Counted from the stretch's first letter, positions 5,439 through 25,013 are shown. The stretch: 64,000 nucleotides of DNA from a virus (IMGVR_UViG_3300007790_000161:5809-69808), one strand, 5' to 3'. Made by a program: numbers and translations. Notes: generated by a model from the sequence alone, not told the origin.

Positions 5439-5487
5439 TGTATTGCCCCCGAAAGGGGGCAAAGCTTCCATAATTAAGGAGAAGGAA

Positions 5488-5670: not shown

Positions 5671-5714
5671 TACCGGGCGGACTTCGGTCCGCCAAGCTTT
5701 CCAACACAAGGAGA

Positions 5715-5903: not shown

Positions 5904-5950
5904 CCTTTCTGCCCACGAAAGTGGGCAAGCTTCCTGACATAGGAGATTAT

Positions 5951-6226: not shown

Positions 6227-6438
6227 TGGATGACAATGACATGCACCCCGGTTCTTGCCTTCTGTGGCTCATAGCTATAGGGTTGGTCTTGTGGTTGGTA
6301 ATTGATTCGGTGGCAAACTGATGAGCGACGAGAGAAACAGAAAGGTTCTCCTCTGGATGCTTCGCCTAAGCCCAATCGGCGCACTTGCCATGATTGCAAT
6401 GGTAGTGTACGCTATCACTCAACAGTAAAGGAGATAAC

Positions 6439-6618
6439 ATGACAAACGGTGAGCTGATTGAGTATCTGAGCACGTTTCCGAAGGATGCTCAGGTTGATGG
6501 ACTTCTGGTTACTGAGCATGGTAAGATGTTTCCTGTACTTGAGAGCAGCACGCTAGACTCTCAGGATGGAGAGATTTCTTGGGAGCTTTACACTGGTGAA
6601 GAATACGACTGTTCGTAA
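6439..6618 (+). CDS. hypothetical protein (59 aa)
   Basis: RBS AAGGAG; begins MTNGELIEYLSTFPKDAQV, a common phage N-terminal pattern. Confidence 0.6.
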   Translation: MTNGELIEYLSTFPKDAQVDGLLVTEHGKMFPVLESSTLDSQDGEISWELYTGEEYDCS

Positions 6619-6689
6619 TCCAAACCCGCCCGGATTTCCGGGCAAGCTTTCCTTCTAGACTATAAGGGTATAGAAACTAGGAGGATGAA

Positions 6690-6845
6690 ATGAATGTTTG
6701 GGTAGTAACAGAAGGAAATTGCACTTGCTGTAACTGGTATGTTGGCGGGGTTTTCTCAACAGAAGAGAAGGCCAACGCCTATGTATCAAAGAGTGAGTAC
6801 AAGTATTCTGAAATTGACGAAGCAATAATTGACGAAGAGGATTAA
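6690..6845 (+). CDS. hypothetical protein (51 aa)
   Basis: RBS AGGAGG; MNVWVVTEG...GGVFSTEEKANAY. Confidence 0.6.
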   Translation: MNVWVVTEGNCTCCNWYVGGVFSTEEKANAYVSKSEYKYSEIDEAIIDEED

Positions 6846-6846
6846 A

Positions 6847-7416
6847 ATGGCAACGTTCTTCACGAGTGACACGCATTTCGGTCATCAGCGTATCATCGAG
6901 CTGTGCGAGCGGCCTTTCGATTCGGTTGATGAGATGAATGAGGCAATGATTGAGCGCTGGAATGAGACGGTAAAGCAGAGTGACACCGTTTACCATCTTG
7001 GTGATGTGGCACTCGGTAAGATTGCCGAGTCTCTTCCCCTCGTTGGTCGTCTGAATGGTTACAAGATTCTTGTTCCTGGTAACCATGACCGCATTTTCTC
7101 AGGCGAGAAGGAAAAGCAGCGTCTCAGGTTCGGTCCGGAGTACGATAAGGTCTTTCAGTACACGCTCCCTGAGAGCTTCCGTACGACCCTGGGAGGCTTT
7201 GATGTGATGCTGAGCCACTTCCCCTACGTTGGGGACTCTCACGGGGCAGACAGACACGCTGACAAGCGTCCCAAGGATGAGGGTCTGCCTATCATTCACG
7301 GTCACGTGCATGACGAGTGGGCAGAAAACGGCCGGATGTTCAATGCAGGTGTTGACGTTCGAGACTTCCGCCCCGTTCATGAGGATGTGGTGGTTGACTG
7401 GCTCAAGAGCCTGTAG
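6847..7416 (+). CDS. calcineurin-like metallophosphoesterase
   Basis: Motifs SDTHFGH, YHLGD, PGNHD, SHFP and HGHVH. Confidence 0.9.
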   Translation: MATFFTSDTHFGHQRIIELCERPFDSVDEMNEAMIERWNETVKQSDTVYHLGDVALGKIAESLPLVGRLNGYKILVPGNHDRIFSGEKEKQRLRFGPEYDKVFQYTLPESFRTTLGGFDVMLSHFPYVGDSHGADRHADKRPKDEGLPIIHGHVHDEWAENGRMFNAGVDVRDFRPVHEDVVVDWLKSL

Positions 7417-7474
7417 TAAGGTGGGGACTGTTCGAAAGGGGCAGTCCCCAAGCTTCCCTGATTGAGGAGAGACA

Positions 7475-7780
7475 ATGGAATTGTTTCATTTCGTATGGGC
7501 TGATGTAATCGCTCTGGGAATCATTGCAATTGGTTTCTGGCGGGCTTTGTATCGTTGTCCTGTTGGTATGAATCCCGATAGGATAATGTATTGGTACATG
7601 GGATGTGGATGGACCACGCTTGGTGTCATCAGAACATATGAGGGATTTTATGTTTCTGCTGCTATTGATGCTGGGTTCGCCGCATATGACTTCTACCGCT
7701 GGTGGAATGCTGGTGGTGGAGATGGCATCAAGAACTTCCTTCAGAGCCTTGTCATGAAGCCTGCTCATGCTGTAAGGTAG
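7475..7780 (+). CDS. membrane protein
   Basis: RBS GAGGAG; three hydrophobic segments. Confidence 0.65.
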   Translation: MELFHFVWADVIALGIIAIGFWRALYRCPVGMNPDRIMYWYMGCGWTTLGVIRTYEGFYVSAAIDAGFAAYDFYRWWNAGGGDGIKNFLQSLVMKPAHAVR

Positions 7781-7838
7781 TACCACAAGCGGGGGCGAAA
7801 GTCTCCGCAAGCTTCCTCCCTAGACCTTAAGGAGAACG

Positions 7839-8294
7839 ATGGACCTGTTTAACGCAGAACGTCAGGCAAAGCTGCTTATGGCTGCGCATGGATTGATTGA
7901 CAAGGGGTGGCGTTTCGAATGGGATAATGCCGCGCGTCGATTCGGTCAGTGCCGCTATAGCACTAAGACAATTTCAATGTCTCGTCAGTTGACTGTTCAG
8001 CGTAGTGCTGACGCTGTTCGGAATACAATGCTTCACGAAATTGCACATGCGCTTACTCCTGGCAGTGGGCACAATGCGATTTGGCGGGCTAAGGCAATTT
8101 CCATTGGCTGTGATGGAAACCGCTGCTCTGATGATAAGGTTGAGGTTGATTACAAGTATGTAGCAAAGTGCCCGAATGGGCATGTTTCAAAGAAGTACCT
8201 TCGTAAGCCTCGGGCATCTGCTAGGCCCCGCTCTTGTGGTACTTGTAGTCCTGTTTACAATGCAAGATATGCAATTAAGGTGTACGCTATCTAG
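7839..8294 (+). CDS. SprT-like zinc metalloprotease
   Basis: Motifs RFGQC, MLHEIAHAL and GH...W, plus a C-terminal Zn knuckle. Confidence 0.88.
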   Translation: MDLFNAERQAKLLMAAHGLIDKGWRFEWDNAARRFGQCRYSTKTISMSRQLTVQRSADAVRNTMLHEIAHALTPGSGHNAIWRAKAISIGCDGNRCSDDKVEVDYKYVAKCPNGHVSKKYLRKPRASARPRSCGTCSPVYNARYAIKVYAI

Positions 8295-8403
8295 AATGGA
8301 CTGGTTCCCCATTCTGTGAATGGTTCGGGCGGGGAGAAATCCCCGCCAAGCTTGCTACAACAGATGGTACAAGAAACCTCTGTGTGGCTGTGTAGGAGGG
8401 CGT

Positions 8404-8586
8404 ATGAACGTGGCTAGGGAGTTGCGTCGGAAAGAGCATTCTAGGCCCGGACATGAGCTTAGAGACGCTACGGATGACGTATTTAGAAGCAACATGGACA
8501 CTGTGACCAGAAGGTTTCACAGATGTTCGTGCGGGTGGTTTGGATGGTTGACAGTCAAGGCGGAAGGCGGTAAGGTAAAGCCATGA
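8404..8586 (+). CDS. hypothetical protein (His/Cys motif)
   Basis: RBS AGGAGG; GHEL...CSCGW. Confidence 0.6.
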   Translation: MNVARELRRKEHSRPGHELRDATDDVFRSNMDTVTRRFHRCSCGWFGWLTVKAEGGKVKP

Positions 8587-8810
8587 ACGTTGAGGTGAAC
8601 AGCCTGTTCTCCCCACTTTTCTGGAAGTCTGTTGCAAGACGACAGGAGGATGGAGAGCGATATGGTCAGGCAGTATTCAATTCTGCCTATGGATTGTTTC
8701 CAGAAGAAGTTGGTGAGCTAGTTGCAACAGAGCTTGACCCGTTCTACAATGATGGGGTTGTCAAGCTTTTCCTTGCAGCACTGACCAGCAAGATTGGGGA
8801 AGTTCGATGA
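8583..8810 (+). CDS. hypothetical protein
   Basis: Overlapping stop/start; RYGQAVFN...DPFY motif. Confidence 0.65.
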   Translation: MNVEVNSLFSPLFWKSVARRQEDGERYGQAVFNSAYGLFPEEVGELVATELDPFYNDGVVKLFLAALTSKIGEVR

Positions 8811-9172
8811 CCCATTTCAAGGAAGTCTGCAAGTGTGGTAAGGTAATCATGCAATGTAGGTGTCCCGGACAGAAGGAGATTCGCGTGACTGACAAGTGTG
8901 AGCATGACTGGAGTCAGGCTCTTGTGGATGAGTTGGATGAGCAGTACGATGTTCCCGCAAGTGTTGAGGGAAACATCGTAAAGAAGGTTGAGATTGACCT
9001 TCCCGGACGGCACTACCTTGACGTTACGAATCACAACCTCTACGGTTTCATTGTCACGCTGACCATTTGTGACGAGACTGGCGGGGTTATCGCTGAAAAG
9101 GACCTGCTTGTTGGTGTTAAGCAGGAGAATCTTGCCAGTGATGTGGCAGGAATTTACAATTCCTACGAATGA
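8807..9172 (+). CDS. hypothetical protein with N-terminal Cys cluster
   Basis: ATGA overlap; CKCG...CRC. Confidence 0.65.
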   Translation: MTHFKEVCKCGKVIMQCRCPGQKEIRVTDKCEHDWSQALVDELDEQYDVPASVEGNIVKKVEIDLPGRHYLDVTNHNLYGFIVTLTICDETGGVIAEKDLLVGVKQENLASDVAGIYNSYE

Positions 9173-9178
9173 GGGGTA

Positions 9179-9370
9179 ATGGGAATCAAAAAGTGGACAG
9201 ACTTAACTCCATCTGAAAAGATGCAGTGGTTTGACAATTCAATACGAATTCATGAGGACCTTCCTATTCAGAAGAAGCGTAAGATTTGGGCGCGGATTGA
9301 AAAGGAACGTAAGAAGGCTGAGCAAAGAGCCAAGAGGCGTAAGCCTAAGTGGTGGCAGCGTAAAAAGTAA
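9179..9370 (+). CDS. small basic protein
   Basis: RBS GAGGGG; Lys/Arg-rich. Confidence 0.6.
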   Translation: MGIKKWTDLTPSEKMQWFDNSIRIHEDLPIQKKRKIWARIEKERKKAEQRAKRRKPKWWQRKK

Positions 9371-9383
9371 CAAACGGGAGGGG

Positions 9384-9412
9384 TTGACAGACCCCTCCCA
9401 AGCTTGTAAGGT
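9384..9412 (+). promoter_or_regulatory. sigma70-type promoter embedded in an inverted repeat
   Basis: TTGACA-N17-TAAGGT. Confidence 0.72.
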
Positions 9413-9434
9413 AATGACCAACAAAGGAGAAGAA

Positions 9435-9671
9435 ATGTTCGGTCGTAAGAAGTACCGCAAGGGTCGTAAGTATGTGCTTGTCATTGCGGCACTGGACCTT
9501 CGCAATCAAGCTAGGCTGTACACTCTCAGGAAGCGTGTTTGGTTTAGTAAGCATGTTTCCGAGATTGACGCAATGGACATGATGATTGATATGCTGTGTG
9601 AAACTTCAGGTGATGAGACTTTCACCAAGCATGAGGCTATGGTTGTCTTTTACCGTCTTGTTCGAGACTAG
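9435..9671 (+). CDS. hypothetical protein
   Basis: RBS AAGGAG before ATG 9435. Confidence 0.65.
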   Translation: MFGRKKYRKGRKYVLVIAALDLRNQARLYTLRKRVWFSKHVSEIDAMDMMIDMLCETSGDETFTKHEAMVVFYRLVRD

Positions 9672-9727
9672 GACTTGACAGGCAGGCGCAAGTCTGCCAA
9701 GCTTGTAACACAACGAAGGGACAGAAG

Positions 9728-9934
9728 GTGCTTCCATCAGGCCACAAGCCGGTATGCAGGTCATGTTACAATTTCGATTGCGACAATTGTGCTGACAAAA
9801 TTGCAAAGAATACTGAATGGGAAGGGGTATTTCCTAAGTGCGAATGCGGATGCTCGGTAAGCGTGGACAGCCGTTCTGTGGAAGCAAGTGCTGTGGAGAA
9901 AAGCGTGCGAAGAAGAAGCACACGCGCCGAATGA
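9728..9934 (+). CDS. Cys-rich (Zn-finger-like) hypothetical protein
   Basis: CRSC...CDNC...CECGC. Confidence 0.6.
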   Translation: MLPSGHKPVCRSCYNFDCDNCADKIAKNTEWEGVFPKCECGCSVSVDSRSVEASAVEKSVRRRSTRAE

Positions 9935-9986
9935 AGCGTCGGGAGCGTGGTTCCCGAGCGTGGCGTAGCTTCTAGAAAATCGGGGG

Positions 9987-10015
9987 TTGACAGAAAAACC
10001 CTCTAGCTGTAAGGT
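9987..10015 (+). promoter_or_regulatory. sigma70-type promoter driving a non-coding region
   Basis: TTGACA-N17-TAAGGT. Confidence 0.72.
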
Positions 10016-10021
10016 AATACC

Positions 10022-10345
10022 AACGCAAGACGGTGAGGGAAGGCGCACTAAGACTCCCGACTCTCACCAAGCTTTGAAGGGTAGAATTACCTCCGTAATG
10101 AGTCCGTGGGTAAGAGTCCATCACGAGTGGAACGAATGGTAACCTACTGCGGCTAACCTTTCTCTTAGACGCCTGATGACCCCCGGATTACGGCTCTTTG
10201 TTTCTAGAGCTTAGATGACCGTAACATCGGTTGCAAACGATAAAGGGGTGAGGGGTGCGCTATAGTGAAAATGGCAAACACACTCGTAAGAGGGGTTCCG
10301 GTTCGAATCCAGATAGCGTACTGGTGTGGGATACCATAAAATCCC
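10022..10345 (+). ncRNA. candidate structured non-coding RNA
   Basis: About 360 nt without a plausible ORF downstream of a promoter. Several stems: 10032-10068, 10076-10162, 10182-10230, a tRNA-like domain, and 10328-10345. Confidence 0.55.
10256..10321 (+). ncRNA. tRNA-like structure lacking an anticodon loop
   Basis: 7-bp acceptor stem TGCGCTA/TAGCGTA, U8A9, D-arm GTG-AAAATGGCAAA-CAC and T-loop TTCGAAT. A CTC-GTAA-GAG hairpin replaces the anticodon arm. Confidence 0.65.
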
Positions 10346-10386
10346 AATCAATAACCGGCTAATCTGCTTAATTAAGGGAGTTTTAC

Positions 10387-10671
10387 ATGCGCCTCAAGGA
10401 TGTAGACCTTACTGGCTGGACCCTGAACATTGAAAAGCATCCGGGATTTAAGGTGATGGGTCAAAATCTGTATTGGTGTTATGTTACCCCGCCCGGAAAG
10501 GAAAAGCCTCTCGAATTCGTTTCCTTCCAGTTTGGGTTGATGATTAATGACCATCTCAGTCTTTATGCCTGGACTGATAAGGGTGCCGAACGTAAGTTCA
10601 TGAAGAAGGTTCGTAAGATGGTTCGAGACGAAATCGTTGAAGCCGAAAGCAAGAAGACCATTTCCCTCTAA
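10387..10671 (+). CDS. hypothetical protein
   Basis: RBS AAGGGAG. Confidence 0.65.
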   Translation: MRLKDVDLTGWTLNIEKHPGFKVMGQNLYWCYVTPPGKEKPLEFVSFQFGLMINDHLSLYAWTDKGAERKFMKKVRKMVRDEIVEAESKKTISL

Positions 10672-10684
10672 GGAGACTGACAAC

Positions 10685-10864
10685 ATGATGATTCCCGCTC
10701 CCCGAGTCGAGTCGTTCCCGTGCCGTGAGACCGGCTGTGATGGCTTCTACGTGCCTTACAGCGACGGTCTGATGGTTTGCTACGACGGACACGTTTCTAG
10801 CCTCTCTGTGGACGACGTAGACGTTCCGGTCGGTGCGCTTGTTCCTGTCCTGGAAGAGTGCTAA
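10685..10864 (+). CDS. hypothetical protein (Cys motif)
   Basis: RBS AAGGAG; CRETGC...CYDGH. Confidence 0.6.
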   Translation: MMIPAPRVESFPCRETGCDGFYVPYSDGLMVCYDGHVSSLSVDDVDVPVGALVPVLEEC

Positions 10865-10917
10865 GATTCTTCTAGCTGGGGACGAAAGTCTCCAGCAAGC
10901 TTCCCTAAGGAGGGGTT

Positions 10918-11151
10918 ATGCAGTACACTATTACTGAGATTCTGCCCAAGAAGTATATGGAAGACCCTACTGACCTTCAGTTTGTTACTGAGGTTGAGGA
11001 TGAATTCCTTCCGAGAATTGGTGATAATCTCGTATATAACAGTCAAGAATATCGAGTTAAGGACGTTGAACGTAATCTTGACACTCGCACTACTATAGTG
11101 TACGTTAGTGTACCTGAACCCGAGCTTGACTTTGGTTATATCGATTGCTGA
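10918..11151 (+). CDS. hypothetical protein
   Basis: RBS AAGGAGG; FLPRIGD motif. Confidence 0.65.
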   Translation: MQYTITEILPKKYMEDPTDLQFVTEVEDEFLPRIGDNLVYNSQEYRVKDVERNLDTRTTIVYVSVPEPELDFGYIDC

Positions 11152-11207
11152 AATCCGGGCGGGTTTTCCCGCCCAAGCTTCCCAACTATCTAATCAAAGG
11201 AAAAGTC

Positions 11208-11708
11208 ATGGTTGGAAATGAAGAGGAAGCTCGTATCATTGCACTCTGGGAATTCGATGAAGTGGATGAATACGAGTATCAACCCCCCGATGGTTTTGAG
11301 TATATCGGGGAGGGAGCTAGCAGGATTGCATTCCGCAGTCTTGCGACTGGAGTAGTGTATAAGCGACACTACTACTCGGATGATGACACTAACGAATTCG
11401 AATACAAGGCAATTGAGAGAATCAAGAGAATTCCTCTCAAGGGCTGGAGGGTTCCCGACGCTACTCTTTATGTGGTTGAGGAACAGCAAATTATAGCAAT
11501 GGAATTTGTTGAGGGTGGAATGGATGTCCATTGTCAGCGTTCCTACTCATTCTGGAACAAGCCGTGCAATTGTGGTAAGCCTCTGGGAATGTGCAGCGCA
11601 GAAGCGTGGGAGCAGCCTCAAGGAAAGTGGCGGGTTTCAGATTTGCATGTTGGCAATATCGTAATCGATGATAACGGCATCAGGGTCTTGATTGACCTCG
11701 GTGCTTGA
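11208..11708 (+). CDS. protein-kinase-like protein (paralog 1)
   Basis: Gly loop GEGASR, VVYK, helix-C Glu, IAMEFVEG hinge, DLHVGN catalytic loop and IDLG. Confidence 0.82.
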   Translation: MVGNEEEARIIALWEFDEVDEYEYQPPDGFEYIGEGASRIAFRSLATGVVYKRHYYSDDDTNEFEYKAIERIKRIPLKGWRVPDATLYVVEEQQIIAMEFVEGGMDVHCQRSYSFWNKPCNCGKPLGMCSAEAWEQPQGKWRVSDLHVGNIVIDDNGIRVLIDLGA

Positions 11709-11762
11709 CCATCACTGCTCAGTCATGATAGGCTGAGCAAGCTTCGGAACAAAGGAGAAAGA

Positions 11763-11903
11763 ATGCCTAAGCGTCAGATGCCCAAGCCTCGTAACCCTCG
11801 TATGAACAAGACGATGGAGTATCGTAAGGGCTCTGGTGATTTTCCGACAATGAGTAAGCCTCGCTACTCTCGTAAGGTCAAGTACATTCGAAAGGAATCG
11901 TAA
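11763..11903 (+). CDS. small basic peptide (46 aa)
   Basis: RBS AAGGAG; MPKRQMPKPRNPRM... Confidence 0.55.
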   Translation: MPKRQMPKPRNPRMNKTMEYRKGSGDFPTMSKPRYSRKVKYIRKES

Positions 11904-12073
11904 TGGAATCCTGGCGGGCTTTCAGAGATAGCAAGTCTCGTGTAAGATATGTAAGGGAAGTTAAGGAAACGGAAGAGAAGTTTGTTCTTCCGTTGTGGAT
12001 TACAATTCCATTTATCATTGCAATGCTTCCCATTATATTTGTTGAAGTTAGATTTCTCTGGGAGGTTATGTAA
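11903..12073 (+). CDS. small membrane protein
   Basis: TAATG overlap; C-terminal TM helix. Confidence 0.5.
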   Translation: MESWRAFRDSKSRVRYVREVKETEEKFVLPLWITIPFIIAMLPIIFVEVRFLWEVM

Positions 12074-12126
12074 TGAATGGTCACTGCTGGTGTGGTGCTG
12101 AGTATCCTTGCCTCAAGCACTGAGGG

Positions 12127-12155
12127 TTGACACCCTACAGGGGGGTAGGGTAAGG
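12127..12155 (+). promoter_or_regulatory. sigma70-type promoter
   Basis: TTGACA-N17-TAAGGT. Confidence 0.7.
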
Positions 12156-12246
12156 TTGTAGTCACAAGGGCAGGGGGCGGAAACAAACCCTGCCAAGCTA
12201 GGAAGGCCAACGGGTCCTCCGGAAAATATTCTAGGGAGAATGCATT

Positions 12247-12630
12247 ATGCGTAAGCTTCACTTCACTGACCCTGAGCTTAAGAACTTCGCCCTTCGTGGT
12301 ACGCATTCGATTCGCGGAGGTATGGAGCTTCTTCACGTGCACTCTCGTAAGGAGCGATTCGGCTCTTACGCTACTCGAATGGACAGTCTGACTCAGGCTT
12401 ACGAGCTTCCCGCTCACGTGATTCACAAGATGATTACGGGCGGGGATTCGGATAAGACGGAAATGCAGTGGATTTACTTTACGAACAAGTACGGCAAGAT
12501 TCGCCCCACCTATCTCTCTGACTCTGGTGTGATTCCCTACGTCGGCTCTGGTGGTTCGGCTCTCAACGACACGAATTTCCTTCTTGACCTCGGTGCCCTT
12601 CGTAAGTTTGGGATTGAGGTTGACTACTGA
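12247..12630 (+). CDS. hypothetical protein
   Basis: 127-aa ORF with phage codon usage. Confidence 0.7.
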   Translation: MRKLHFTDPELKNFALRGTHSIRGGMELLHVHSRKERFGSYATRMDSLTQAYELPAHVIHKMITGGDSDKTEMQWIYFTNKYGKIRPTYLSDSGVIPYVGSGGSALNDTNFLLDLGALRKFGIEVDY

Positions 12631-12702
12631 GGTAGTCATGGGCTACAGTAGAAGCGTAGCCCAAGCTTGCAACACCCCATCGTAAACCAACACTAAGGAT
12701 GA

Positions 12703-13098
12703 ATGATGAACAAGGGTCTCAAGGTCGCTGGTCTCGCTGTTGCTGGTGTGGTTGCTCTGACTGCCTGTGAGGGTGGTTCGAGTACGGTTCACTACAAGAG
12801 TGGTAAGGCTGGCACTGTTGTCGGAAAGTCTTCCAAGGGTGGTACGTACAAACTGACTACCAAGAGCGGCGGTAAGAAGAAGACGTTTGAGGTTTTCTCC
12901 TCTGTCTACTTTGACTGCGGAATGTACAGCTACTACCCCACTTGTGTCAAGTCGGCAAAGCCGGTTTCCACTCCCACCAAGAATGGCGGTGTGAATGGTA
13001 CTCCCAAGTCTAAGAAGACTTCTGGTACTAAGTCCGACTCTAACAAGAAGAGTGGCGGATTTAAGAGTGGTGGCTTCTCTTCCAGCAAGAAGCGCTAA
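12703..13098 (+). CDS. lipoprotein with Lys/Ser/Gly-rich tail
   Basis: Signal peptide with lipobox LTA-C; low-complexity C-terminus. Confidence 0.7.
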   Translation: MMNKGLKVAGLAVAGVVALTACEGGSSTVHYKSGKAGTVVGKSSKGGTYKLTTKSGGKKKTFEVFSSVYFDCGMYSYYPTCVKSAKPVSTPTKNGGVNGTPKSKKTSGTKSDSNKKSGGFKSGGFSSSKKR

Positions 13099-13155
13099 TA
13101 TCCGGCAAAAATAAAGATTATCGTAAACAGAATAAACTAATAGATAATAAATATC

Positions 13156-13193
13156 TCCCCTCTGGCTTCGGCCAGAGGGGATTTTTGTGTTTT
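13156..13193 (+). terminator. strong intrinsic terminator ending the rightward arm
   Basis: TCCCCTCTGGC-TTCG-GCCAGAGGGGA then TTTTTGTGTTTT. Confidence 0.88.
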
Positions 13194-13210
13194 AATTTCA
13201 AAAAATTCAA

Positions 13211-13290
13211 AAATTTTGTGGCAAAATTTTGAACCATCGTAAAGGGAATTCTGAAATTTTTGTGGCATTTTTTATGACCATCGTAAAGGG
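13211..13290 (+). repeat. imperfect direct repeat with A/T tracts
   Basis: AAATTTT(T)GTGGC-N8-..ACCATCGTAAAGGG at 13211-13246 and 13254-13290. Confidence 0.8.
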
Positions 13291-13708
13291 GCTTCTGCCG
13301 GAATCGGACATGTCGGGCTCGCCCCGCTTCGCGGGGCTTCGCCCTCTTTTATACCAAATTGTACCAATTTGGTAGTGTTTGCCCTGGTCTGTACTGAAAT
13401 GTACCCGAATGTCCGATTTTCCCGAATCCCCAGTCGGCACAGAAGATTTTACCTCCTGAGGGGTTGACTAATTGCCAGGGCATAGGGTACGCGCGGGAAT
13501 TCCGGGCCTGCCTGGTTTCGAGCGTCCGGCCGAGCCGTGCCGACACGCGCAGCGCACCCGAGCAGCCGGATAGTTTAACTCTAAACATTTAGGCCGGCAA
13601 ATCATTTCATTAGCTAACTAAATAGTTAGACAGCCTAAGCTGTTACATTCCGGCCGGACGATTGTACCAATCAGTGTAGCAATACAGACGTTGATACAAT
13701 CCGAGATT

Positions 13709-13752
13709 GTTGAACACTCAACAATCAGAGTCTAAGAGGTTGAGTGTTCAAC
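13709..13752. repeat. perfect 14-bp inverted repeat
   Basis: GTTGAACACTCAAC-N16-GTTGAGTGTTCAAC. Confidence 0.9.
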
Positions 13753-13838
13753 CAAAATTTGTAGCATAGATTGTAGCAATACGAAGAGCGCTACAAAGCC
13801 AGTCGGCAAGGATGGTTGAAATCTGTACTTCCACAGGC

Positions 13839-14114
13839 TGTGGATAAACCTGTGGATAACTTCGCTACTCTGTGCAATGTTACTTCACAGTATGTGAGAA
13901 AAGCTCTGTACGCCTTTCTAAGAGCCTCCCAGCACTGCCCATAGGCAACCACCCCAGGGCACCCGCGAAAGGCCGTTAGACGCGATTTTCACGCTGCGTA
14001 GTATCTGACGGACCGTTGGGAAACCCTAGAAAACCGCAGGTCAGACTATGTTTCGGCATTTATGAAGGGTTGTTGAATAACTGCGCACGGTTACTCTCTG
14101 TTGACTGTGGATAA
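13839..14114 (-). promoter_or_regulatory. three perfect DnaA boxes (TTATCCACA)
   Basis: TGTGGATAA at 13839-13847, 13851-13859 and 14106-14114. Confidence 0.7.
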
Positions 14115-14317
14115 CTATTCTTTACCAAGTTGTTACCAAAAAGGTCTTGACAACGAAGCAAAAATTTGCCTACCGGGGGCGGCCGGCCAATCAGGTAAAA
14201 TTTTGGTAACGATTCCTGAAAAGCCTTGACAACTGACCAGCGGGAAGCTATTTACGCGCAGCGTGCACGCTCCGGGTGTGATGGGAACGGCATAGGTTAC
14301 TCGCCGGTTAACTAACT

Positions 14318-14335
14318 GTGTGACGCACGTCACAC
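14318..14335. promoter_or_regulatory. perfect palindrome matching the Crp/GlxR consensus TGTGA-N6-TCACA
   Basis: GTGTGACG-CA-CGTCACAC, 11 bp upstream of TTGCAA. Confidence 0.55.
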
Positions 14336-14340
14336 GAGAA

Positions 14341-14535
14341 AGGGACTTGCAATCCGGGCCGGTTTCCTGGAGAGTCTTCCTTGTCAGAACGGAACGGCGG
14401 AACGGGAAACCGGGAAGTCGGGAAGGGAAGACAAGCGGTAACCGACTCTGATAGAGTCGGAGACGCACCGGAGGAAAACCCGAAAGGGCCAGTACAAAGG
14501 AATGCGCGGTTCCTTGAGAATTCAATAGTGGGTAC
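14341..14535 (+). promoter_or_regulatory. rRNA-operon-like tandem promoter and leader with boxA
   Basis: TTGCAA-N17-GAGAGT; extended -10 TG-A-TAGAGT (14449-14457); CCC-GAAA-GGG hairpin (14479-14488); GTTCCTTGAGAATTCAATAG (14509-14528), which matches actinobacterial rrn boxA as recalled. Confidence 0.72.
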
Positions 14536-14878
14536 AGAAACACATTACGCACCATAGAGCGCTAAAGCGTCCCTAGTCCGTGAATTCTGCGGGGAATACG
14601 CCAATACATTGTTAGCGCGAATCGGTATTCTCGGCACTTTGCCAGAATTAGCGAAAAGACACCCTCTCCCTGTCATGGCAAGACATATCGGGTGTGGCGG
14701 ATATCCGGGCGGTAGACCGGGTGTGAATATCCAATCTGAGTAGCGAAATTCAGCGGGTGTTTTGTTTATTGGTCAATGGTGTAACCGTCCCGATTATCTA
14801 GGGACTGTGGCTTTAGACGCTTACCCTTTCGAGCGTCTAGTGTCCACATGTGATTAGGGGAAGAAAGCTGAGGCGAAA
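14536..14878 (+). ncRNA. highly structured leader of about 340 nt or ncRNA
   Basis: Stems include AATTCTG/CAGAATT, GGGAATAC/GTATTCTC, ACACC/GGTGT, GGATAT/ATATCC, GTCCC/GGGAC and TAGACGCT/AGCGTCTA. Confidence 0.55.
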
Positions 14879-15184
14879 ATGACCACTGCCAAGAGCACTG
14901 CCAAGCGTCCGGCGCGCAAGGTTGCCGAGACTGCCGAGAGTGACCCTCAGAACGTCGCAGGATGGACGTTCACGGCCCCCCGGAAGGTTCGGGGGTGGAA
15001 GAGTGCCGGTACCGTCTCTCTGACGCGTCAGACGCCGGATGAGCCGTCCGGCGGGTGGCATAAGGTGTGCCGTGCCCTGTGGAACATGGGTGAGGCGGCC
15101 GAAACCGCAACGGGCGGGAATGCGTATTACGCCCGTCGCCGTGACGCGATTGTCTCGCGTCTGGAATCCTTCCTTTCCAAGTAG
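14879..15184 (+). CDS. hypothetical protein, first gene of the putative early block
   Basis: First ORF after the leader; Ala/Lys-rich N-terminus. Confidence 0.7.
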   Translation: MTTAKSTAKRPARKVAETAESDPQNVAGWTFTAPRKVRGWKSAGTVSLTRQTPDEPSGGWHKVCRALWNMGEAAETATGGNAYYARRRDAIVSRLESFLSK

Positions 15185-15281
15185 CTAAACCGTCTCTTCC
15201 GGTAATGCCGGATTGAGGCAAGGGAAACCCAACAAACCGAATTCCCCTAATCACTTGCGGACACTAGAAAGGAGAAAATCA

Positions 15282-15773
15282 GTGTTCCGACTTTCGGTGA
15301 ATGGCAAAACCTACAACCCGACTTCCGTTAAGGATTTTTGGCCGCGTGCCAATCGTTCTGACGGATACGACGGAAGTTGGGTTGAATTCCCGGATTTCTA
15401 TTACTGCGTTTGGATGACCATTGACGGCAAGACTTTTGCCGTTGACGGAAATGCTTCGCGGTATGAGCTTGCCCGGCACATTCGGAATTCCCGCAAGATT
15501 GCGGCGAGTAATCCGGATGTTCCCTTTTCCATCGGCTATCAGAAGATTTGGACAACGCGACGGGAATTGCTTTGCCCGTGGTGTGGCGTCCGGCCGGACC
15601 AATGGGAATGGGACTGTGACGGACAGTTTCCCATGTCCACATGTGGCAGCGAACAGTGTGACAAGCTGAATCGCTGTCAGGGGTGCGGACGCGACGGGGA
15701 GGCACGCATTAACCATCTGTGTGATGAGTGCTACGTCATGGAATACAAGCGACCACTACCGGGCCGGAAGTAA
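15282..15773 (+). CDS. hypothetical protein with C-terminal Zn fingers
   Basis: RBS AAAGGAG with GTG at 15282; CPWC, CxxxxC, CQGC and CDEC. Confidence 0.7.
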   Translation: MFRLSVNGKTYNPTSVKDFWPRANRSDGYDGSWVEFPDFYYCVWMTIDGKTFAVDGNASRYELARHIRNSRKIAASNPDVPFSIGYQKIWTTRRELLCPWCGVRPDQWEWDCDGQFPMSTCGSEQCDKLNRCQGCGRDGEARINHLCDECYVMEYKRPLPGRK

Positions 15774-15870
15774 TTCAGCTAGTAGTTTGGGGGTCTGCCT
15801 TTCCCGAAAGGGAAAGGCATTCCACCCCAATCCGCTAGACGAAAAGCGGTGTCCTGAAAGGGAAAAGGAA

Positions 15871-16545
15871 ATGTCCGAAACCATCGGCACTCAGGCTGAG
15901 GCGGAAGAGATTTTCAGTTTCGTTCTGCGCTATAACGCGTGGAAGCAAATGGAGCGGAACAACGAATTCGCGGCGTACGAATTCAGCCATCACGCAGAAA
16001 TGCTGCGGCTGCACCGACAGTTCCCGGATGACCCTTGGTACCGGCACCCCGGCCCGCTCCGTTGCCACTACGCCTACGGGCCGAACATCGAAAAGCCGGA
16101 ACTTCCGGAAGGTTGGAAGTTCCTTGCGGCCGGTGTCTCCCGTCGCGCTTACCTCTCCCCTTCCGGGGTGGTTTACAAGGTGCAGCGCAACCCTGAGAGC
16201 GACTATCAGGGGAACAAGGGAGAGCACGAAACGGCGGAGCGTGTGCGCAAGTCCGGGGATGTCCGGGGCGCGTACATTCCCCGGACGTCGCTTTACAAGG
16301 TTCCGGGGTCATGGGTAATCGCCCTGGAATACATGAACGGCATTCGCGGTGACGACCATTGGGAAATGTACTGCTATCCCGGTGAACGGTGCCGTTGCGC
16401 ATTCCCCGGATACGTCCGGTGCGCGTCCGCTATCAAGCGGGAATTGCAGAACAAGTTGGGCCTTTCCGACTTGCACAACGAAAACGTTTTGTGGGTTCCC
16501 TCACAACGCGTTTGGGCGGTCGTTGACTTGGGATTGGCCAACTAA
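15871..16545 (+). CDS. protein-kinase-like protein (paralog 2)
   Basis: AAGVSRRAY, VVYK, NKGE, IALEYMNG, DLHNEN and VVDLG. Confidence 0.82.
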   Translation: MSETIGTQAEAEEIFSFVLRYNAWKQMERNNEFAAYEFSHHAEMLRLHRQFPDDPWYRHPGPLRCHYAYGPNIEKPELPEGWKFLAAGVSRRAYLSPSGVVYKVQRNPESDYQGNKGEHETAERVRKSGDVRGAYIPRTSLYKVPGSWVIALEYMNGIRGDDHWEMYCYPGERCRCAFPGYVRCASAIKRELQNKLGLSDLHNENVLWVPSQRVWAVVDLGLAN

Positions 16546-16615
16546 GCCATTCTGTGGCTTTAGGGGTGCTCACTCGAAAGGGTGAGCACACCCTATGGAC
16601 TCACAGAAAGGATGA

Positions 16616-17080
16616 ATGACAGTGAGTTTCAATCCGGCTGAGAAAGTCAGTCAGTGGAATTACGCCGTAGAAATCGAGTATTCGGAAGGGACTAGCACTC
16701 TCATCCGTTCGGCTTTCTTCGGTACGGCAAAGGATGCGGCTGCATTCCTTGACGGTTTCGACTACACAAACGGTGACGTTTTCGGGTGGTCGGGTGATTC
16801 CGCAACGATGGAAGCAATCCAGAGTTACCGAAAGGGTGACGACGTGCGAGCGGTTCCGGAATTCATCACGGAATACGACGTTGACGACGAAACCGATTCG
16901 GGTAAGGCAATCGGAGCGGACGAATTCAATCGTCTGTTTCTCGCCTTCCACCGAAAGGACGGTTTCACGGTGCGCCGTTGGGCCGTTCCGAACGGACACG
17001 TTTACGCCGTTATGTATAACGGTGAGCTGTCCGGCGCGGCATGGCACGTTCCGACGGATGCGGATTCCGTCATCATGTAA
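16616..17080 (+). CDS. hypothetical protein
   Basis: RBS GAAAGGA; acidic. Confidence 0.7.
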   Translation: MTVSFNPAEKVSQWNYAVEIEYSEGTSTLIRSAFFGTAKDAAAFLDGFDYTNGDVFGWSGDSATMEAIQSYRKGDDVRAVPEFITEYDVDDETDSGKAIGADEFNRLFLAFHRKDGFTVRRWAVPNGHVYAVMYNGELSGAAWHVPTDADSVIM

Positions 17081-17168
17081 GAGCCTTTCAGTCTCTATAG
17101 GGAAAGGGGGTGGTTACCTTGCGACGTAGGCGCAAGCGCAAATTACCCAACGGCTGAAAGGAAAAGGA

Positions 17169-17405
17169 ATGCGGGAATATCTGGTCTGGAATGAATCCGG
17201 CGACTTGCTTTCGGGACCACACCGGAAGAGAGAAACGGCGGAAAGGATGGAAGCTAAGTTCATGGCGGAATGTGCGGCGGAATGCGGTACAGACGGTATG
17301 GACGAAAACGGAAACGGTAATTTCGCGTGCGGAGTGCTTTCCCCGCACGGAATCCACATTCAAGTGACGGAAGGTGGATACGACATTACCGGGCACGATT
17401 ACTGA
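17169..17405 (+). CDS. hypothetical protein
   Basis: RBS AAGGA. Confidence 0.65.
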   Translation: MREYLVWNESGDLLSGPHRKRETAERMEAKFMAECAAECGTDGMDENGNGNFACGVLSPHGIHIQVTEGGYDITGHDY

Positions 17406-17486
17406 CGCTAGGGCGTCCGGGCATTCGCAACTGTCGTTGTGAGTGTCCGAATGTCCTAAGGGTTAGGGCATTGAAAGGGGTATGAA

Positions 17487-17660
17487 ATGCGTACGGTCAA
17501 GGTTGACGGTAAGTCGGGCATCATCGCTGCGCGCGGTATGGGTCCGAACGATGGCAACGTGTTCGTTCTGTTCGATGGGGACGGCACGGCGGAAGAGTCG
17601 GCCCGTTGGGTGTCGGTGGAGTCGGTCACGGTGACCGGAACCCTTCCCGCATCGTTCTAG
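17487..17660 (+). CDS. hypothetical protein (57 aa, SH3-like beta pattern; not in the ORF track)
   Basis: RBS AAAGGGG; MRTVKVDGKSGIIAARG...VFVLFDG...WVSVESV. Confidence 0.6.
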   Translation: MRTVKVDGKSGIIAARGMGPNDGNVFVLFDGDGTAEESARWVSVESVTVTGTLPASF

Positions 17661-17763
17661 GCCCGTGGGGGCCGTTCTGAGAGGCTTTGGAACGCCCCCC
17701 GGCCCGTTTCCCCAACCAAGCTGAGTACGGCCGTTAGAGCGGCGTACAGGAGGTTTTTGTAGC

Positions 17764-18027
17764 ATGGAACGTAGCACGGTGTCCCTGTCCACTCCGCGCG
17801 GGGAACTGATTCGGTTTGAGATTCCGGGATTCGGTTTGGTGCACATGCGCCCCGGAAATCTCGCGGAATGCATGACGCGCACTGAGGAAATGACGATTCC
17901 GGAAATTCGGCAGTCGCTCATTTCGGAAGGGTGGAGCTTGGGAATCCTTGACGGTCCGTCCGATGCAATTTCCCGAATCTCTTGGGTTGCGGTTTGGGGA
18001 GAGTGCCACGGACACGGCATTTTCTGA
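17764..18027 (+). CDS. hypothetical protein
   Basis: RBS AGGAGG. Confidence 0.65.
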   Translation: MERSTVSLSTPRGELIRFEIPGFGLVHMRPGNLAECMTRTEEMTIPEIRQSLISEGWSLGILDGPSDAISRISWVAVWGECHGHGIF

Positions 18028-18122
18028 TATGAGCGTTTAGCCGCTCTAGTCATTCTCAGGATTCCTGAGTTTGGCTAAATCGGCTGAAAGCAAAGTCGAG
18101 AATTCCACGAAAGGGAATTACC

Positions 18123-18680
18123 GTGATTGGCAATGCACGTGACGCGGAAATGATTCGTGATTACGTCGTTAACTCGCGGATTGTCCGGGAAGAGCGTTCG
18201 AATTACGAATGTGGCTATTTCATCGGCCCCGTTCGCAATCGACCGGCCCGACCGGAAGGATGGAAGCGCGTAGGCGGCGGGTGTTTTCGTTCCGCGTGGC
18301 TTTCCCCGGACGGTGTGATTTACAAGGTGGAACACGCTTACGGGAATGGCGGGCAGTCGAATTCGGAGGAATACGAAAACGTCGTCCGAATCCTCACGGG
18401 GAACAAGTCGCACCCTTACGTGTCCATTCCGCGAGTCACCTATTACGCCCTTGACGGGCGGGGGGTCATCGCAATGGAGTACGTGAACGGGGAAGAGCCG
18501 GGATACTGCCACGGGTGCGGAAGTGGTTACCGGCACTGCACCACAAAGGTTCGGGGGAAGTGCATTAACCACATTTACGCGGAAATCGAAAAGGAATTCG
18601 GCCTTTTCGATATGCACTCCGGAAACGTGATGTTCATTCCCGAACAAGAGCGTTTCGTCGTTATCGACATTGGCGCTTAG
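18123..18680 (+). CDS. protein-kinase-like protein (paralog 3)
   Basis: GGGCFRSAW, VIYK, NSEE, IAMEYVNG, DMHSGN and VIDIG. Confidence 0.82.
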   Translation: MIGNARDAEMIRDYVVNSRIVREERSNYECGYFIGPVRNRPARPEGWKRVGGGCFRSAWLSPDGVIYKVEHAYGNGGQSNSEEYENVVRILTGNKSHPYVSIPRVTYYALDGRGVIAMEYVNGEEPGYCHGCGSGYRHCTTKVRGKCINHIYAEIEKEFGLFDMHSGNVMFIPEQERFVVIDIGA

Positions 18681-18759
18681 ACGTCTAGTGATTGGCAGGC
18701 TTGTTTAGCTGCCTTTCGCTAAATGCCTAAGGGTTAGGCAGGAAAAGGGGAAATGCAGA

Positions 18760-19098
18760 ATGACGGTAAAGCTTGGCATGTACGGCAAGGGTCGCACTTC
18801 CTGGATTGACTTCCGGGATGTGATTCTGTCGGGTGAGGCTTTCACCATTTCTTCCGGCACGTTCTACGGTGGTCCGGTCAAGCCCGGTTATGCGGCCCAT
18901 TTGGAAATGGGCCGGATGCCGAATAACGAGCGTGAGATTTTCCGCGCGCTCGCGCCGGAAATCGATTACGTGATTTACAGCTATGCGACTCCGATTGCAT
19001 GGCACGAAAGGGGTGCGGACGTTTGGCACCTTACGGAAGCGGGTCACAGCAATTCCACAAAGCGGCACAAGGGTAAGCTTTGTGGTCTGCCGTTCTAA
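18760..19098 (+). CDS. hypothetical protein (YSYxTPIAW motif)
   Basis: RBS AAGGGG; recurrent phage motif. Confidence 0.7.
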   Translation: MTVKLGMYGKGRTSWIDFRDVILSGEAFTISSGTFYGGPVKPGYAAHLEMGRMPNNEREIFRALAPEIDYVIYSYATPIAWHERGADVWHLTEAGHSNSTKRHKGKLCGLPF

Positions 19099-19183
19099 AC
19101 GGTTCGGGTTGCGGTATTCCGGGCGGGTGTTCGGAATACCGTTTTCCCAATCCGCTTAGGGTGAGTGGATTAGAAAGGAAATC

Positions 19184-19393
19184 ATGGTTATTCTTGCGTT
19201 GCTCGGAATGTTCGCTATTTCGCTCGTGTTCGGAGCGATTGCGGCTGTCCCTATCGCATGGCTTGTCATGCTGATTATGGGAGCGCTGCATAGCGTATTC
19301 CCGTCCGTGGAAAACCTTTCCTTCCTTTCGGCATGGGTGGCAACTTGGCTTGTTGCCATTATCGCCGGGGTGTTTGTGCAGAACCGAAGCTAA
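19184..19393 (+). CDS. membrane protein
   Basis: RBS AAAGGA; almost entirely hydrophobic. Confidence 0.7.
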   Translation: MVILALLGMFAISLVFGAIAAVPIAWLVMLIMGALHSVFPSVENLSFLSAWVATWLVAIIAGVFVQNRS

Positions 19394-19477
19394 CGGTTCG
19401 GGTGATTGGCAATGGAGAGTTTGCCAATTGCTCAATCCGCTAGATTCAAAAAGCGGTGACCGAAAGGGTAAAAGCTA

Positions 19478-19858
19478 ATGGGACACATTTTCGCTTTCAT
19501 GACCGGTACCGCCGTTTCGCTTGACGGTGGGGAGGACGAAAGGGAAGAGCGTCACGGCTGGATTGACAAGGAATGGAGCATGACCGTTCTGCACGATTCC
19601 CGGAACGACGTTTCTCCGCTGGTTTCCGTTGACGAATCGGACACGGAAACCCTCACGGACGAAATCCGGGATGTGTTGGGAGACGGTTCCCTGTGGGATG
19701 ACAACGGGGACGGCTCTTTCTATGCACAGGGTGAGTCCGTGGAAGATGGTTACGCATGGACGTACGCCGTGCATTTCAAGCGCAAGGGTGGCGCGTCTGA
19801 GGGGTTCGCGGAGACGGATTGGCACCCTGAGACGGACGGCGGTATTTCTCTCGTCTGA
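19478..19858 (+). CDS. acidic hypothetical protein
   Basis: RBS AAAGGG. Confidence 0.7.
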   Translation: MGHIFAFMTGTAVSLDGGEDEREERHGWIDKEWSMTVLHDSRNDVSPLVSVDESDTETLTDEIRDVLGDGSLWDDNGDGSFYAQGESVEDGYAWTYAVHFKRKGGASEGFAETDWHPETDGGISLV

Positions 19859-19916
19859 GAGGCATACAGCCGCTAGGCGGTAGGTTGGTACATAGCGTGC
19901 AACAAAAAGGTGCTGT

Positions 19917-20393
19917 GTGCCTTCCTACGGCACCGGGAAACCGTTCCCGGTGTCTGGCTTAGGGAAGGGGTTACAAGTGGCTCTAACGGGCGTACACGCG
20001 TGCATGGACGGTATCCGGCACGGCAACGGGGAGTGTGGTTTCAGTCCGTTGTCTGTCCGGGGTGCGACGTGCTGTCAGTGCAAGGGGTATCCGGCCACTA
20101 CCGCACAGGGTGACTGCACTGTGTGCGGGGGCGGGTATTACGAATCGATGGACGATTTCCGGGCCGATATTCCCCCGGTAGATTCCGGGCGGGTAGTGAG
20201 TGAATTCCCCATTACCATTACCGCCTATAGAGGAAACAAGGAAGTAAAGGTAAGTGGAGTAAGGGAAGATTCGGTAAAGGCCAATACGGATAGGGAAGGG
20301 AATGTGTTCCTTTCCTTTGAATTCAAGGATGACCCGGACCGAATCGGGTACATTCCTTGCGTGGATTGGTACGCAACCGAATGTGAATGGTAG
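19917..20393 (+). CDS. hypothetical protein; the true start may be GTG 20196
   Basis: The C-terminal 65 aa look like a discrete protein. The 5' part competes with ORF 19910-20113. Confidence 0.45.
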   Translation: MPSYGTGKPFPVSGLGKGLQVALTGVHACMDGIRHGNGECGFSPLSVRGATCCQCKGYPATTAQGDCTVCGGGYYESMDDFRADIPPVDSGRVVSEFPITITAYRGNKEVKVSGVREDSVKANTDREGNVFLSFEFKDDPDRIGYIPCVDWYATECEW

Positions 20394-20622
20394 AAAAGCA
20401 CTACACACTAGGAAGAAAGGACAGCCTATCGATTGTCGATAGATTTAGAGGGTAATAGTGCGGCAATTCAAAAGGCCGCATTTAATAGGTAATTCGGCTA
20501 AAAAGCCTGCAAATGCAAGGGAAAAGGCATGAAAACGGCTGCATTTCTCGCAATTCTCGGTGTTTCTCTGTGCATCCTGTATATCAGGGGCGCATATACG
20601 GTAATTACAGGAGGGTAGATAT

Positions 20623-20904
20623 ATGGGTTGTGCTATTCAGTGGGTATCTAGGAAGGGAAATGGGGGTGTTATCTATGGTGGGTATGTAGTGAATGACGGT
20701 ACACACATTGTCTTTGTGGATACCCGGTCAAAGGGGAATACCCGCCCGCTCTATCTCTACCTAGGAAAGGGGGATGACCTAAAGGGTATGGCTGTATATA
20801 GGGAATCGGCATTCATCATGCCGGATGTTCTCTTGAATGCAGCTCAATACAATACCCTTGTTGCCTCTATGGATGACTATAAGACTAGGTCATTCAAAGG
20901 GTAA
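20623..20904 (+). CDS. hypothetical protein
   Basis: RBS AGGAGG. Confidence 0.6.
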   Translation: MGCAIQWVSRKGNGGVIYGGYVVNDGTHIVFVDTRSKGNTRPLYLYLGKGDDLKGMAVYRESAFIMPDVLLNAAQYNTLVASMDDYKTRSFKG

Positions 20905-21112
20905 TCAGTCGGAAGAAAACCCGCGAGAAATCCGGGCGGAAAAGATTCAGCATTATGGAGAGGTTGCATCCTTTGCGGGTAGGGGTGTTCTTTTCGTCGG
21001 CACAATGGGAATTGCTGCGGTATCGGCAATCGCAATCGCTCTAGCTGGATTGTTCTTTGTCCTGGGAATTGTGTTCCAAGCTTTCTCGGTATTCTAGAGA
21101 GGAATTCTTTTA

Positions 21113-24526: not shown

Positions 24527-24582
24527 ATGCAAAAAGCCGCTGACAAATAGCAGCGGCTAGTCTCCTTTTCTATTTGTTTGAG

Positions 24583-25012: not shown

Positions 25013-25013
25013 A

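Follow-up and report, generated by a model that had tools for sequence, protein, structure and literature searches.

Truncated protein-kinase-like proteins encoded in up to three paralogous copies by Streptomyces phages

Three genes for small protein-kinase-like proteins, here named K1, K2, and K3, were found on the + strand of a 64,000-nucleotide stretch of viral DNA (IMGVR_UViG_3300007790_000161:5809-69808), referred to below as the window. The three genes are true paralogs, and their products belong to a large family of short proteins that stop soon after the magnesium-binding aspartate of the kinase core. Structure prediction shows a protein-kinase-like fold for the K1-type protein. K1, K2, and K3 are most likely active enzymes, self-contained phosphotransferases that depend on ATP, and they belong to an uncharacterised family of "mini" kinase-like phage proteins (mini-kinases). 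Their N-lobe is complete, with its Gly loop, β3 lysine, and helix C glutamate, and their C-lobe is present only in its first part, up to the Mg-binding aspartate. What is new is the size of the family, its uniform truncation, the insert with four cysteines, the link to the kinase of phage T7, the history of the three lineages, and the pairing of K1 with a small open reading frame (ORF); the kind of protein is already known.

Three paralogous kinase-like genes

The three genes are the following.

11208 to 11708, + strand: K1, a mini protein-kinase-like protein of 166 amino acids, of a lineage found in all five Loccivirinae genera; guanine-plus-cytosine (GC) content 47.5%, like that of the genome
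15871 to 16545, + strand: K2, a paralog of 224 amino acids; GC content 58.5%, GC3 72%
18123 to 18680, + strand: K3, a paralog of 185 amino acids with a GTG start; GC content 55.4%

All three ORFs are open at these coordinates and are preceded by sensible ribosome-binding sites. The products share 30 to 36% pairwise identity, and BLASTP aligned K1 with K2 at an E value of 4.5e-15, K1 with K3 at 2.3e-11, and K2 with K3 at 3e-28. The original prediction, made from the sequence alone, had listed a series of kinase motifs common to the three ORFs, and every one of them was recovered in a three-way alignment: on the N-terminal side, an M-x-G...A..I helix, P-[DE]-G-[WF], the Gly loop, and V-[VI]-Y-K, and further along the chain, N-x-x-E, I-A-[ML]-E-[YF]-x-x-G, D-[LM]-H-x-x-N, and [IV]-D-[LI]-G. 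In K1, the Gly loop lies at residues 34 to 36, followed by Lys52, Glu65, the hinge IAMEF (residues 95 to 99), an insert with four cysteines (Cys109, Cys120, Cys122, and Cys129), the catalytic loop from Asp145 to Asn150, and Asp163; the last residue is 166. The four-cysteine insert is also present in K2, in which about 45 inserted residues separate the N-terminal helix from the P-E-G-W motif. The catalytic loop reads FDMHSGNVMF in K3 and DLH-x-x-N in K1 and K2, and the DFG equivalent reads IDLG in K1, VDLG in K2, and IDIG in K3. Beyond the Mg-binding aspartate, the chain continues for only three residues in K1 and K3 and for five in K2.

All three proteins matched phrog_28435 over nearly the full length of the profile, with E values of 1.2e-25 to 1e-30. 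This PHROG carries no function; to it we add a fold, a set of catalytic residues, and a link to the T7 gp0.7 kinase (T7K). Two PHROGs annotated as kinases, 18305 and 15752, were weakly matched by K3. When the IMG/VR contig to which the window belongs (71,960 bases) was searched in full by profile, exactly three copies were returned, namely K1, K2, and K3, which bears out the earlier claim that this phage carries an expanded kinase family.

Predicted fold

Given the three paralogs alone, AlphaFold produced a model too poor to use (pLDDT 46); it was replaced by an AlphaFold2 run with an alignment of 149 family members, which reached a pLDDT of 93.9 and a pTM of 0.88. In this model, the N-lobe consists of the N-terminal helix, strands β1 to β3 with Lys52 in β3, helix C with Glu65, and strands β4 and β5, leading to the hinge. 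The remainder is made up of the cysteine insert, helix E, the catalytic loop, strands β7 and β8, and Asp163, after which the chain ends. Foldseek comparison of the model with the PDB and BFVD returned kinases only at a probability of 1.00, so that a kinase fold is indeed what is predicted, and the best viral match was the Wakanda homolog, which is annotated as a serine/threonine kinase.

VIA-align comparison of the model with 48,161 representative chains, in which rows within 1 Z unit are counted as tied, likewise placed only kinase-like folds in the top rows (Z 8 to 9.7). The leaders were APH(2'')-Ia (Z 9.7), the ABC1-like protein Rv3197 (Z 9.5), and APH(2'')-IVa (Z 9.2). The minimal and atypical kinases OspG (Z 8.8 over 121 residues), NleH1 (Z 8.2), Bud32 (Z 8.2 to 8.4), and Rio1 and Rio2 (Z 8.4 to 9.1) were found in the same range, BRAF, PknE, YabT, and ADCK3 were also among the high matches, and the tRNA kinase Ark1 (PMC10622864) appeared lower in the list (Z 7.7; rmsd, 2.7). 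Because the tied rows mix protein, small-molecule, and RNA kinases with ATPases, the substrate class cannot be read from the fold. The predicted fold and the conserved catalytic set agree with the earlier assignment of these proteins to the protein-kinase-like superfamily, and we consider it very likely that K1, K2, and K3 combine a kinase fold with catalytic competence.

Size, conservation, and truncation of the mini-kinase family

A profile built from K1, K2, and K3 was searched against 1.84 billion representatives of clusters at 50% identity. The family comprises at least 808 clusters at an E value of ≤1e-3, with 292 of them at ≤1e-10. Each of the best 150 of the 808 representatives is between 126 and 244 amino acids long, and no longer fused forms of the family were found, which is weak evidence. 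Conservation was counted in the alignment of 149 representatives, which have about 30% identity to K1, and is given in K1 numbering. Gly36, Tyr51, and Lys52 are invariant (149/149); Glu65, Asp145, Asp163, Arg39, and Ala8 are each conserved in 148 members, Asn150 in 147, and Gly3 in 143. The column two past the Mg-binding aspartate holds glycine in 96 members and alanine in 25.

The truncation extends throughout the family. The C terminus lies exactly three residues past Asp163 in 108 of the 149 members and no more than nine residues past it in nearly all. K1, K2, and K3, whose chains end at the core, lack both the activation segment, from DFG to APE, and all of helices F through I. By the number of cysteines in the insert between the hinge and helix E, the members fall into two groups, with four or more in 77 and none or one in 54, a pattern that would fit an optional metal-binding knuckle; the four-cysteine form probably binds zinc.

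Known families were reached only faintly. Scans of K1, K2, and K3 with Pfam, NCBIfam, and PADLOC returned nothing above threshold, in a Pfam set that did not include PF27024 and in which T7K itself was unmatched. Pkinase (PF00069) did not match K1, K2, or K3 at an E value of ≤10 and matched a single one of the 149 members (E value, 0.0077), and a PDB sequence search gave matches only at E values of ≥0.027. The weak Pfam matches among the 149 members are confined to the kinase clan, with ABC1 in 13, Kinase-PolyVal in 5, and PI3_PI4 in 3, and more rarely APH in 2 (best E value, 0.0058) and RIO1 and Pkinase in 1 each.

Several families that resemble the mini-kinases in structure can be told apart from them. 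OspG, NleH, Bud32, and RIO, small kinase-like domains that also lack an activation loop, match the model well in structure, yet they have no significant sequence similarity to the mini-kinases. The alignments to them stop at the last residue of the model, whereas those chains continue and retain C-lobe helices past the DFG equivalent. The match to APH at Z 9.7 is limited to the shared core: the H-G-D-x-x-x-x-N loop and the C-terminal helical substrate-binding subdomain of APH (PF01636) are absent from K1, K2, and K3, in which the loop reads [SF]-D-[LM]-H-x-x-N. A likeness to ABC1/UbiB is seen in the presence of Rv3197 and ADCK3 among the top structural matches, but ABC1 (PF03109) was not reached, K1 scoring 11.3 bits against a gathering threshold of 22.9, and K3 matched the UbiB model TIGR01982 (E value, 0.0014) with 17.3 bits against a cutoff of 487. 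ABC1 proteins are longer than 400 amino acids, and extra N- and C-terminal helices close their active site.

Comparison with the T7 gp0.7 kinase

The third-ranked entry in the ESM Atlas was a cluster in which 61% of the members carry PF27024 (Phage_T7_kinase), and after this lead T7 gene 0.7 and its relatives were taken for comparison. T7K is a hyperactive, hyper-promiscuous kinase that disarms defence systems; its kinase domain spans residues 1 to 242, with the DFG equivalent (DPV) at residues 213 to 215 (PMC13645617). A six-frame search of the T7 genome with the family profile returned gene 0.7 as the sole match (E value, 4.2e-4). The hidden Markov model (HMM) of the family aligned with T7K residues 44 to 213 at about 21 bits, and the reverse search with a T7K HMM gave at most 14 bits on family members. 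Comparison of the family with T7K by hhalign gave an E value of 3.2e-5 and a probability of 73%, with the N-lobe aligned in the default run; in an alternative run, the catalytic loop (E value, 3.2e-5) and a Gly-loop segment (E value, 0.0028) were aligned with their order kept.

The comparison with gp0.7 drawn in the original prediction is upheld by this sole match in the T7 genome together with two further features. The T7K consensus catalytic loop, FDMHSGNIMF, is identical to that of K3 at nine of ten positions, and the spacing between the catalytic and the Mg-binding aspartates is 18 residues in T7K and K3 alike. T7K and the mini-kinases also share a [GA]-G-[WF]-K-x-[LV]-G-x-G...A-[YW] segment ahead of V-[IY]-K, and both are phage-encoded cores that stop at or soon past the Mg-binding aspartate. 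The region between the hinge and the catalytic loop, in contrast, is about 80 residues long in T7K and about 45 in the mini-kinases, where it often holds four cysteines, and unlike T7K, the mini-kinases occur in phages of actinobacterial hosts and in up to three copies per genome. We take T7K to be the closest functional and architectural analogue of the mini-kinases and a probable distant relative; membership in one family is not claimed. We speak of an analogue rather than of a family member because the similarity is remote, with bit scores like those of the best PDB kinases.

Proposed role and alternative explanations

Since the layout of K1, K2, and K3 is that of the T7 gp0.7 kinase core minus its DNA-binding shut-off domain, a T7K-like action can be proposed, and on balance we lean slightly towards protein kinases that act in the manner of T7K on host and phage proteins. 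After infection, they would phosphorylate serine and threonine (perhaps also tyrosine) residues of host and phage proteins with little built-in selectivity, and host functions might thereby be redirected or defence proteins inactivated. We infer a role in host takeover or anti-defence by analogy with T7K (PMC13645617). The three old paralogs may differ in their targets or in their timing.

A number of observations weigh against this proposal or against the kinship with T7K. The C-terminal DNA-binding shut-off domain of T7K is not found in the mini-kinases; it is also missing from jumbophage and prophage T7K homologues (PMC13645617). The DFG equivalent is DPV in T7K and D-[LI]-G in K1, K2, and K3, and the autoinhibitory serine that T7K carries past the Mg-binding aspartate is not found in the mini-kinases. 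The score of about 21 bits for T7K is close to the 17 bits obtained for PAK1 in the PDB, so that the kinship is suggestive, not proven, and the precomputed Pfam field reads "-" for the K1 cluster and PF27024 for the T7K relatives. Among structural neighbors, APH(2'') and an ABC1-like protein rank first by Z, with Ark1 listed as well, and the core ends three residues past the Mg-binding aspartate, without helix F. Helix F anchors the spines of canonical kinases, and because it is missing, activity without a partner is not assured. The loop D-x-H-x-G-N is the catalytic loop of ABC1/UbiB too, and ABC1 is the Pfam family most often matched by the mini-kinases, with a best E value of 8.7e-6.

Some of these observations would suit kinase-fold phosphotransferases that act on a non-protein substrate, such as the 2'-OH of RNA or tRNA (the Ark1 case), an antibiotic made by the host, for example an aminoglycoside (the APH case), a lipid, or a nucleotide signal. 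The rank of APH(2''), Rv3197, and Ark1 among the structural matches points in this direction, as do the absence of the peptide-binding parts of canonical kinases, the presence of four phage tRNA genes in the window, and the conserved Arg39, which sits at the Gly-loop tip and could contact an anionic substrate. We nevertheless regard such a substrate as unlikely: the C-terminal helical subdomain of APH/choline-kinase-type enzymes is missing, as is the APH loop; BRAF, PknE, OspG, and YabT tie within 1 Z unit; and the minimal kinases OspG and NleH, as well as T7K, act on proteins. The mini-kinases could also be ATPases or nucleotide-dependent switches like RIO, Bud32, or UbiB, which use ATP hydrolysis to power a change of conformation or an assembly step, perhaps one that involves a partner such as the small basic protein encoded next to K1. 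Families of the RIO, Bud32, and UbiB type are without an activation loop as well, Rio1, Rio2, and Bud32 rank high among the structural matches (Z 8.2 to 9.1), ABC1/UbiB leads the Pfam matches with 13 of the 149 members, K3 weakly matches TIGR01982, and a conserved neighbor gene is always found with K1. Every one of these profile matches is far below the curated thresholds, however, no ABC1-specific N-terminal elements were seen, the catalytic aspartate and asparagine are retained as in true transferases, and the association with the small ORF is limited to K1; a switch of this kind is thus quite improbable.

It is hardly credible that the mini-kinases are catalytically dead pseudokinases that act only by binding, whether host kinases, defence sensors, or nucleotides are what they would decoy or soak up. 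Sponge proteins are common in phages, and the extreme truncation, without helix F or an activation segment, would be in keeping with such a protein; typical pseudokinases, however, lose at least one catalytic residue, and here five catalytic residues are kept in at least 99% of the 149 members at about 30% mutual identity.

A bolder form of the proposed T7K-like role is doubtful. The mini-kinases might be some of the smallest known self-sufficient protein kinases (about 155 to 170 amino acids), in which the conserved N-terminal helix and, in half of the members, a Cys4 zinc knuckle would stabilise the core in place of helices F to I; in Loccivirinae phages, they might serve as a T7K-like weapon of broad phosphorylation against Streptomyces defences in up to three diverged copies, with K1 and its neighboring 46-residue basic protein forming a split counterpart of the kinase and DNA-binding domains of T7K. 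Recent work has shown that kinases of phages can disarm defences broadly (T7K, Nature 2026; JSS1_004), so far mainly in T7-like coliphages, and the same stripped-down kinase core is now seen in a large family of soil phages. The SEA-PHAGES isolates on S. griseus and S. lividans would allow a tractable test of whether promiscuous phosphorylation is a general strategy of phages in Actinobacteria, and the family as a whole is a natural test of the minimal kinase fold for catalysis.

Distribution and history of the copies

Searches by tblastn with K1 or K3 returned 38 phage records, all of Streptomyces phages. Those whose taxonomy line was read span all five genera of the Loccivirinae. There are one to three copies per genome, and in the single-copy phages the copy aligns end to end with K1 at 33 to 42% identity. 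No family member was found by profile at an E value of ≤1 in two genomes of the Boydwoodruffvirinae, those of Coruscant and Tomas, and 14 control bacterial genomes gave no profile match. In a FastTree phylogeny of the 149 members, K1 falls in a clade of 26 members (support, 98), and K2 and K3 fall in a separate clade of 64 (support, 97). Since K1 and the pair K2 and K3 belong to different clades, the copies are old lineages and not recent duplicates. K1 would be the ancestral copy of the subfamily.

The GenBank annotation of these genes is uneven. Orthologs of K1 are labeled "kinase" or "serine/threonine kinase" in some records, that of K2 is labeled "serine/threonine kinase" only in Emma1919, and those of K3 are labeled "hypothetical protein" in all records seen. 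The present analysis corrects this annotation, in which K3 orthologs were left as hypothetical and K1 and K2 were inconsistently named. In the literature, no paper on the mini-kinase family was found.

A second contig, IMGVR_UViG_3300036859_000020, carries two mini-kinase paralogs without the cysteine insert at positions 1060 to 2835. A gap of 240 bases that holds a single small ORF separates them, and both belong to the K2/K3 clade. This contig (26.6 kb; about 59% complete) is from a high-GC phage unlike that of the window, and because an unrelated high-GC contig thus holds two members, multiple copies per phage recur. The two paralogs adjoin a gene that is phosphoribosyltransferase-like by motif reading, and a sigma-factor-like gene lies further on, on the opposite strand.

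Genes neighboring K1

Directly downstream of K1 lies a small basic ORF, which also follows K1 orthologs in related phages.

11763 to 11903, + strand: small basic ORF of 46 amino acids, with 15 Lys and Arg residues and an isoelectric point (pI) of 11.1
Small ORF in the loci of relatives: L006:4033-4182, L007:4043-4171, L008:1525-1671, L009:1532-1681
Small ORF in the loci of relatives, continued: L010:1543-1665, L011:1508-1636, L012:1563-1703, L013:1768-1908

An ORF of 40 to 49 amino acids follows the K1 ortholog in every phage checked, namely in phages of the genera Gilsonvirus, Wakandavirus, Wilnyevirus, Annadreamyvirus, and Faustvirus and in Ankus, whose record gives no classification; only in Patelgo does a further ORF stand between the two. 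Across these phages the small ORF keeps a pI of 10 to 12, 14 to 15 Lys and Arg residues, and the shared motif E-[YL]-R-x-G...P..S...Y-[SK]-R-K-x-K-[YH], while the other neighbors of K1 change. It was unmatched in Pfam, PHROG, and NCBIfam. Our hypothesis, from synteny within one subfamily, which is weak evidence, is that its product may work with K1 as a partner, cofactor, substrate, or targeting subunit. The idea that it corresponds to the shut-off domain of T7K was rejected, as there is no significant similarity to the T7K C terminus with its basic helix (E value, 0.15, compositional). A split kinase, with the C-lobe encoded downstream, was rejected as well: the genes that follow K1, K2, and K3 are unrelated to one another and to any family.

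Upstream of K1, the gene at 6847 to 7416 encodes a Metallophos_2/YfcE-like phosphoesterase (phrog_547; E value, 2.8e-51) with a PDB relative in aq_1665 (1xm7). We read its motifs, SDTHFGH, GDV, and GNHD, as those of a protein that is not a PPP-type Ser/Thr phosphatase. The original prediction had recognized a metallophosphoesterase here and supposed that it could oppose the kinases. The identity holds, but nothing ties the gene to K1, K2, or K3; as a dedicated antagonist it was rejected, phrog_547 being widespread, the protein YfcE/aq_1665-like, and the gene 3.8 kb upstream with no specific link. It is followed by a gene for an SprT-like protease at 7839 to 8294, according to the annotation of relatives.

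Genome setting of K1, K2, and K3

By megablast, positions 10 to 20 kb of the window correspond to about 117 to 128 kb of the approximately 128- to 130-kb genomes of Streptomyces phages of the genus Gilsonvirus (Stanwilliamsviridae, Loccivirinae), with Kenrey as the top match (92.8% identity over 85%). The phage of the window is a Gilsonvirus, and its right genome arm carries K1, K2, and K3, each on the + strand, within roughly its final 10 kb. Position 1 onward of Kenrey-type genomes matches position 20458 onward of the window, and the contig runs through the short terminal repeat. At 20394 to 21100 it crosses the end of the phage genome, and the genes at 20623 to 21097 correspond to the last two genes of Kenrey. 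The alignment implies that a terminal repeat, short at about 0.8 kb, was assembled here as a single copy.

Two features mark the division between K1 and the other two copies.

13156 to 13181, + strand: strong intrinsic-terminator-like hairpin with an 11-bp stem and a T run, closing the K1 transcription arm
14879 to 20400, no strand assigned: GC-rich island with K2 and K3, of about 12 small + strand genes, between a noncoding gap and the terminal repeat

The gap, 1.7 kb long, follows the terminator and precedes the island. The GC content of the island is 55.6%, compared with 48.3% in positions 1 to 13100 and 45.7% in positions 21000 to 64000. AAGCTT sites number 24 in the first 13.1 kb versus 2, both intragenic, between 13.1 and 20.46 kb. 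In the K1 arm, intergenic elements made of a hairpin and AAGCTT punctuate the genes, for example at 11175 before K1 and at 11739 before the small ORF; ahead of the island genes stand different hairpins, whose loops read GAAA or AAGG, and recurring "AATCCGCTAGA...AAAGCGGTG" words. The higher GC content and the lack of hairpin and AAGCTT elements suggest that K2 and K3 were brought in with this island as an accessory module from a source of higher GC content. A scan for sigma-70 promoters between 10 and 21.5 kb found sites no more frequent than in shuffled sequences, and the timing of expression is therefore not informed by it. Of the earlier claim that two of the genes lie in a putative early block, the separate block of K2 and K3 is thus borne out by the terminator, the gap, the GC content, and the AAGCTT sites, while its early timing stays putative.

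The region from 13100 to 14878 is without a long ORF and is unannotated in Kenrey and Emma1919 as well. The DnaA-box consensus TTATCCACA, in its reverse-complement form TGTGGATAA, has only three exact sites in the window, at 13839, 13851, and 14106, all within a 276-bp part of this region. The region also contains a tandem 44-nucleotide repeat (13210 to 13297) and repeated "tgtaccaat"/"tgtagcaata" words, and it may serve as an origin, in the titration of DnaA, or in regulation. A cluster of four tRNA genes (Thr-GGT, Thr-CGT, Thr-TGT, and Ile-GAT) is found at 24582 to 25084 on the - strand, close to the left end of the genome.

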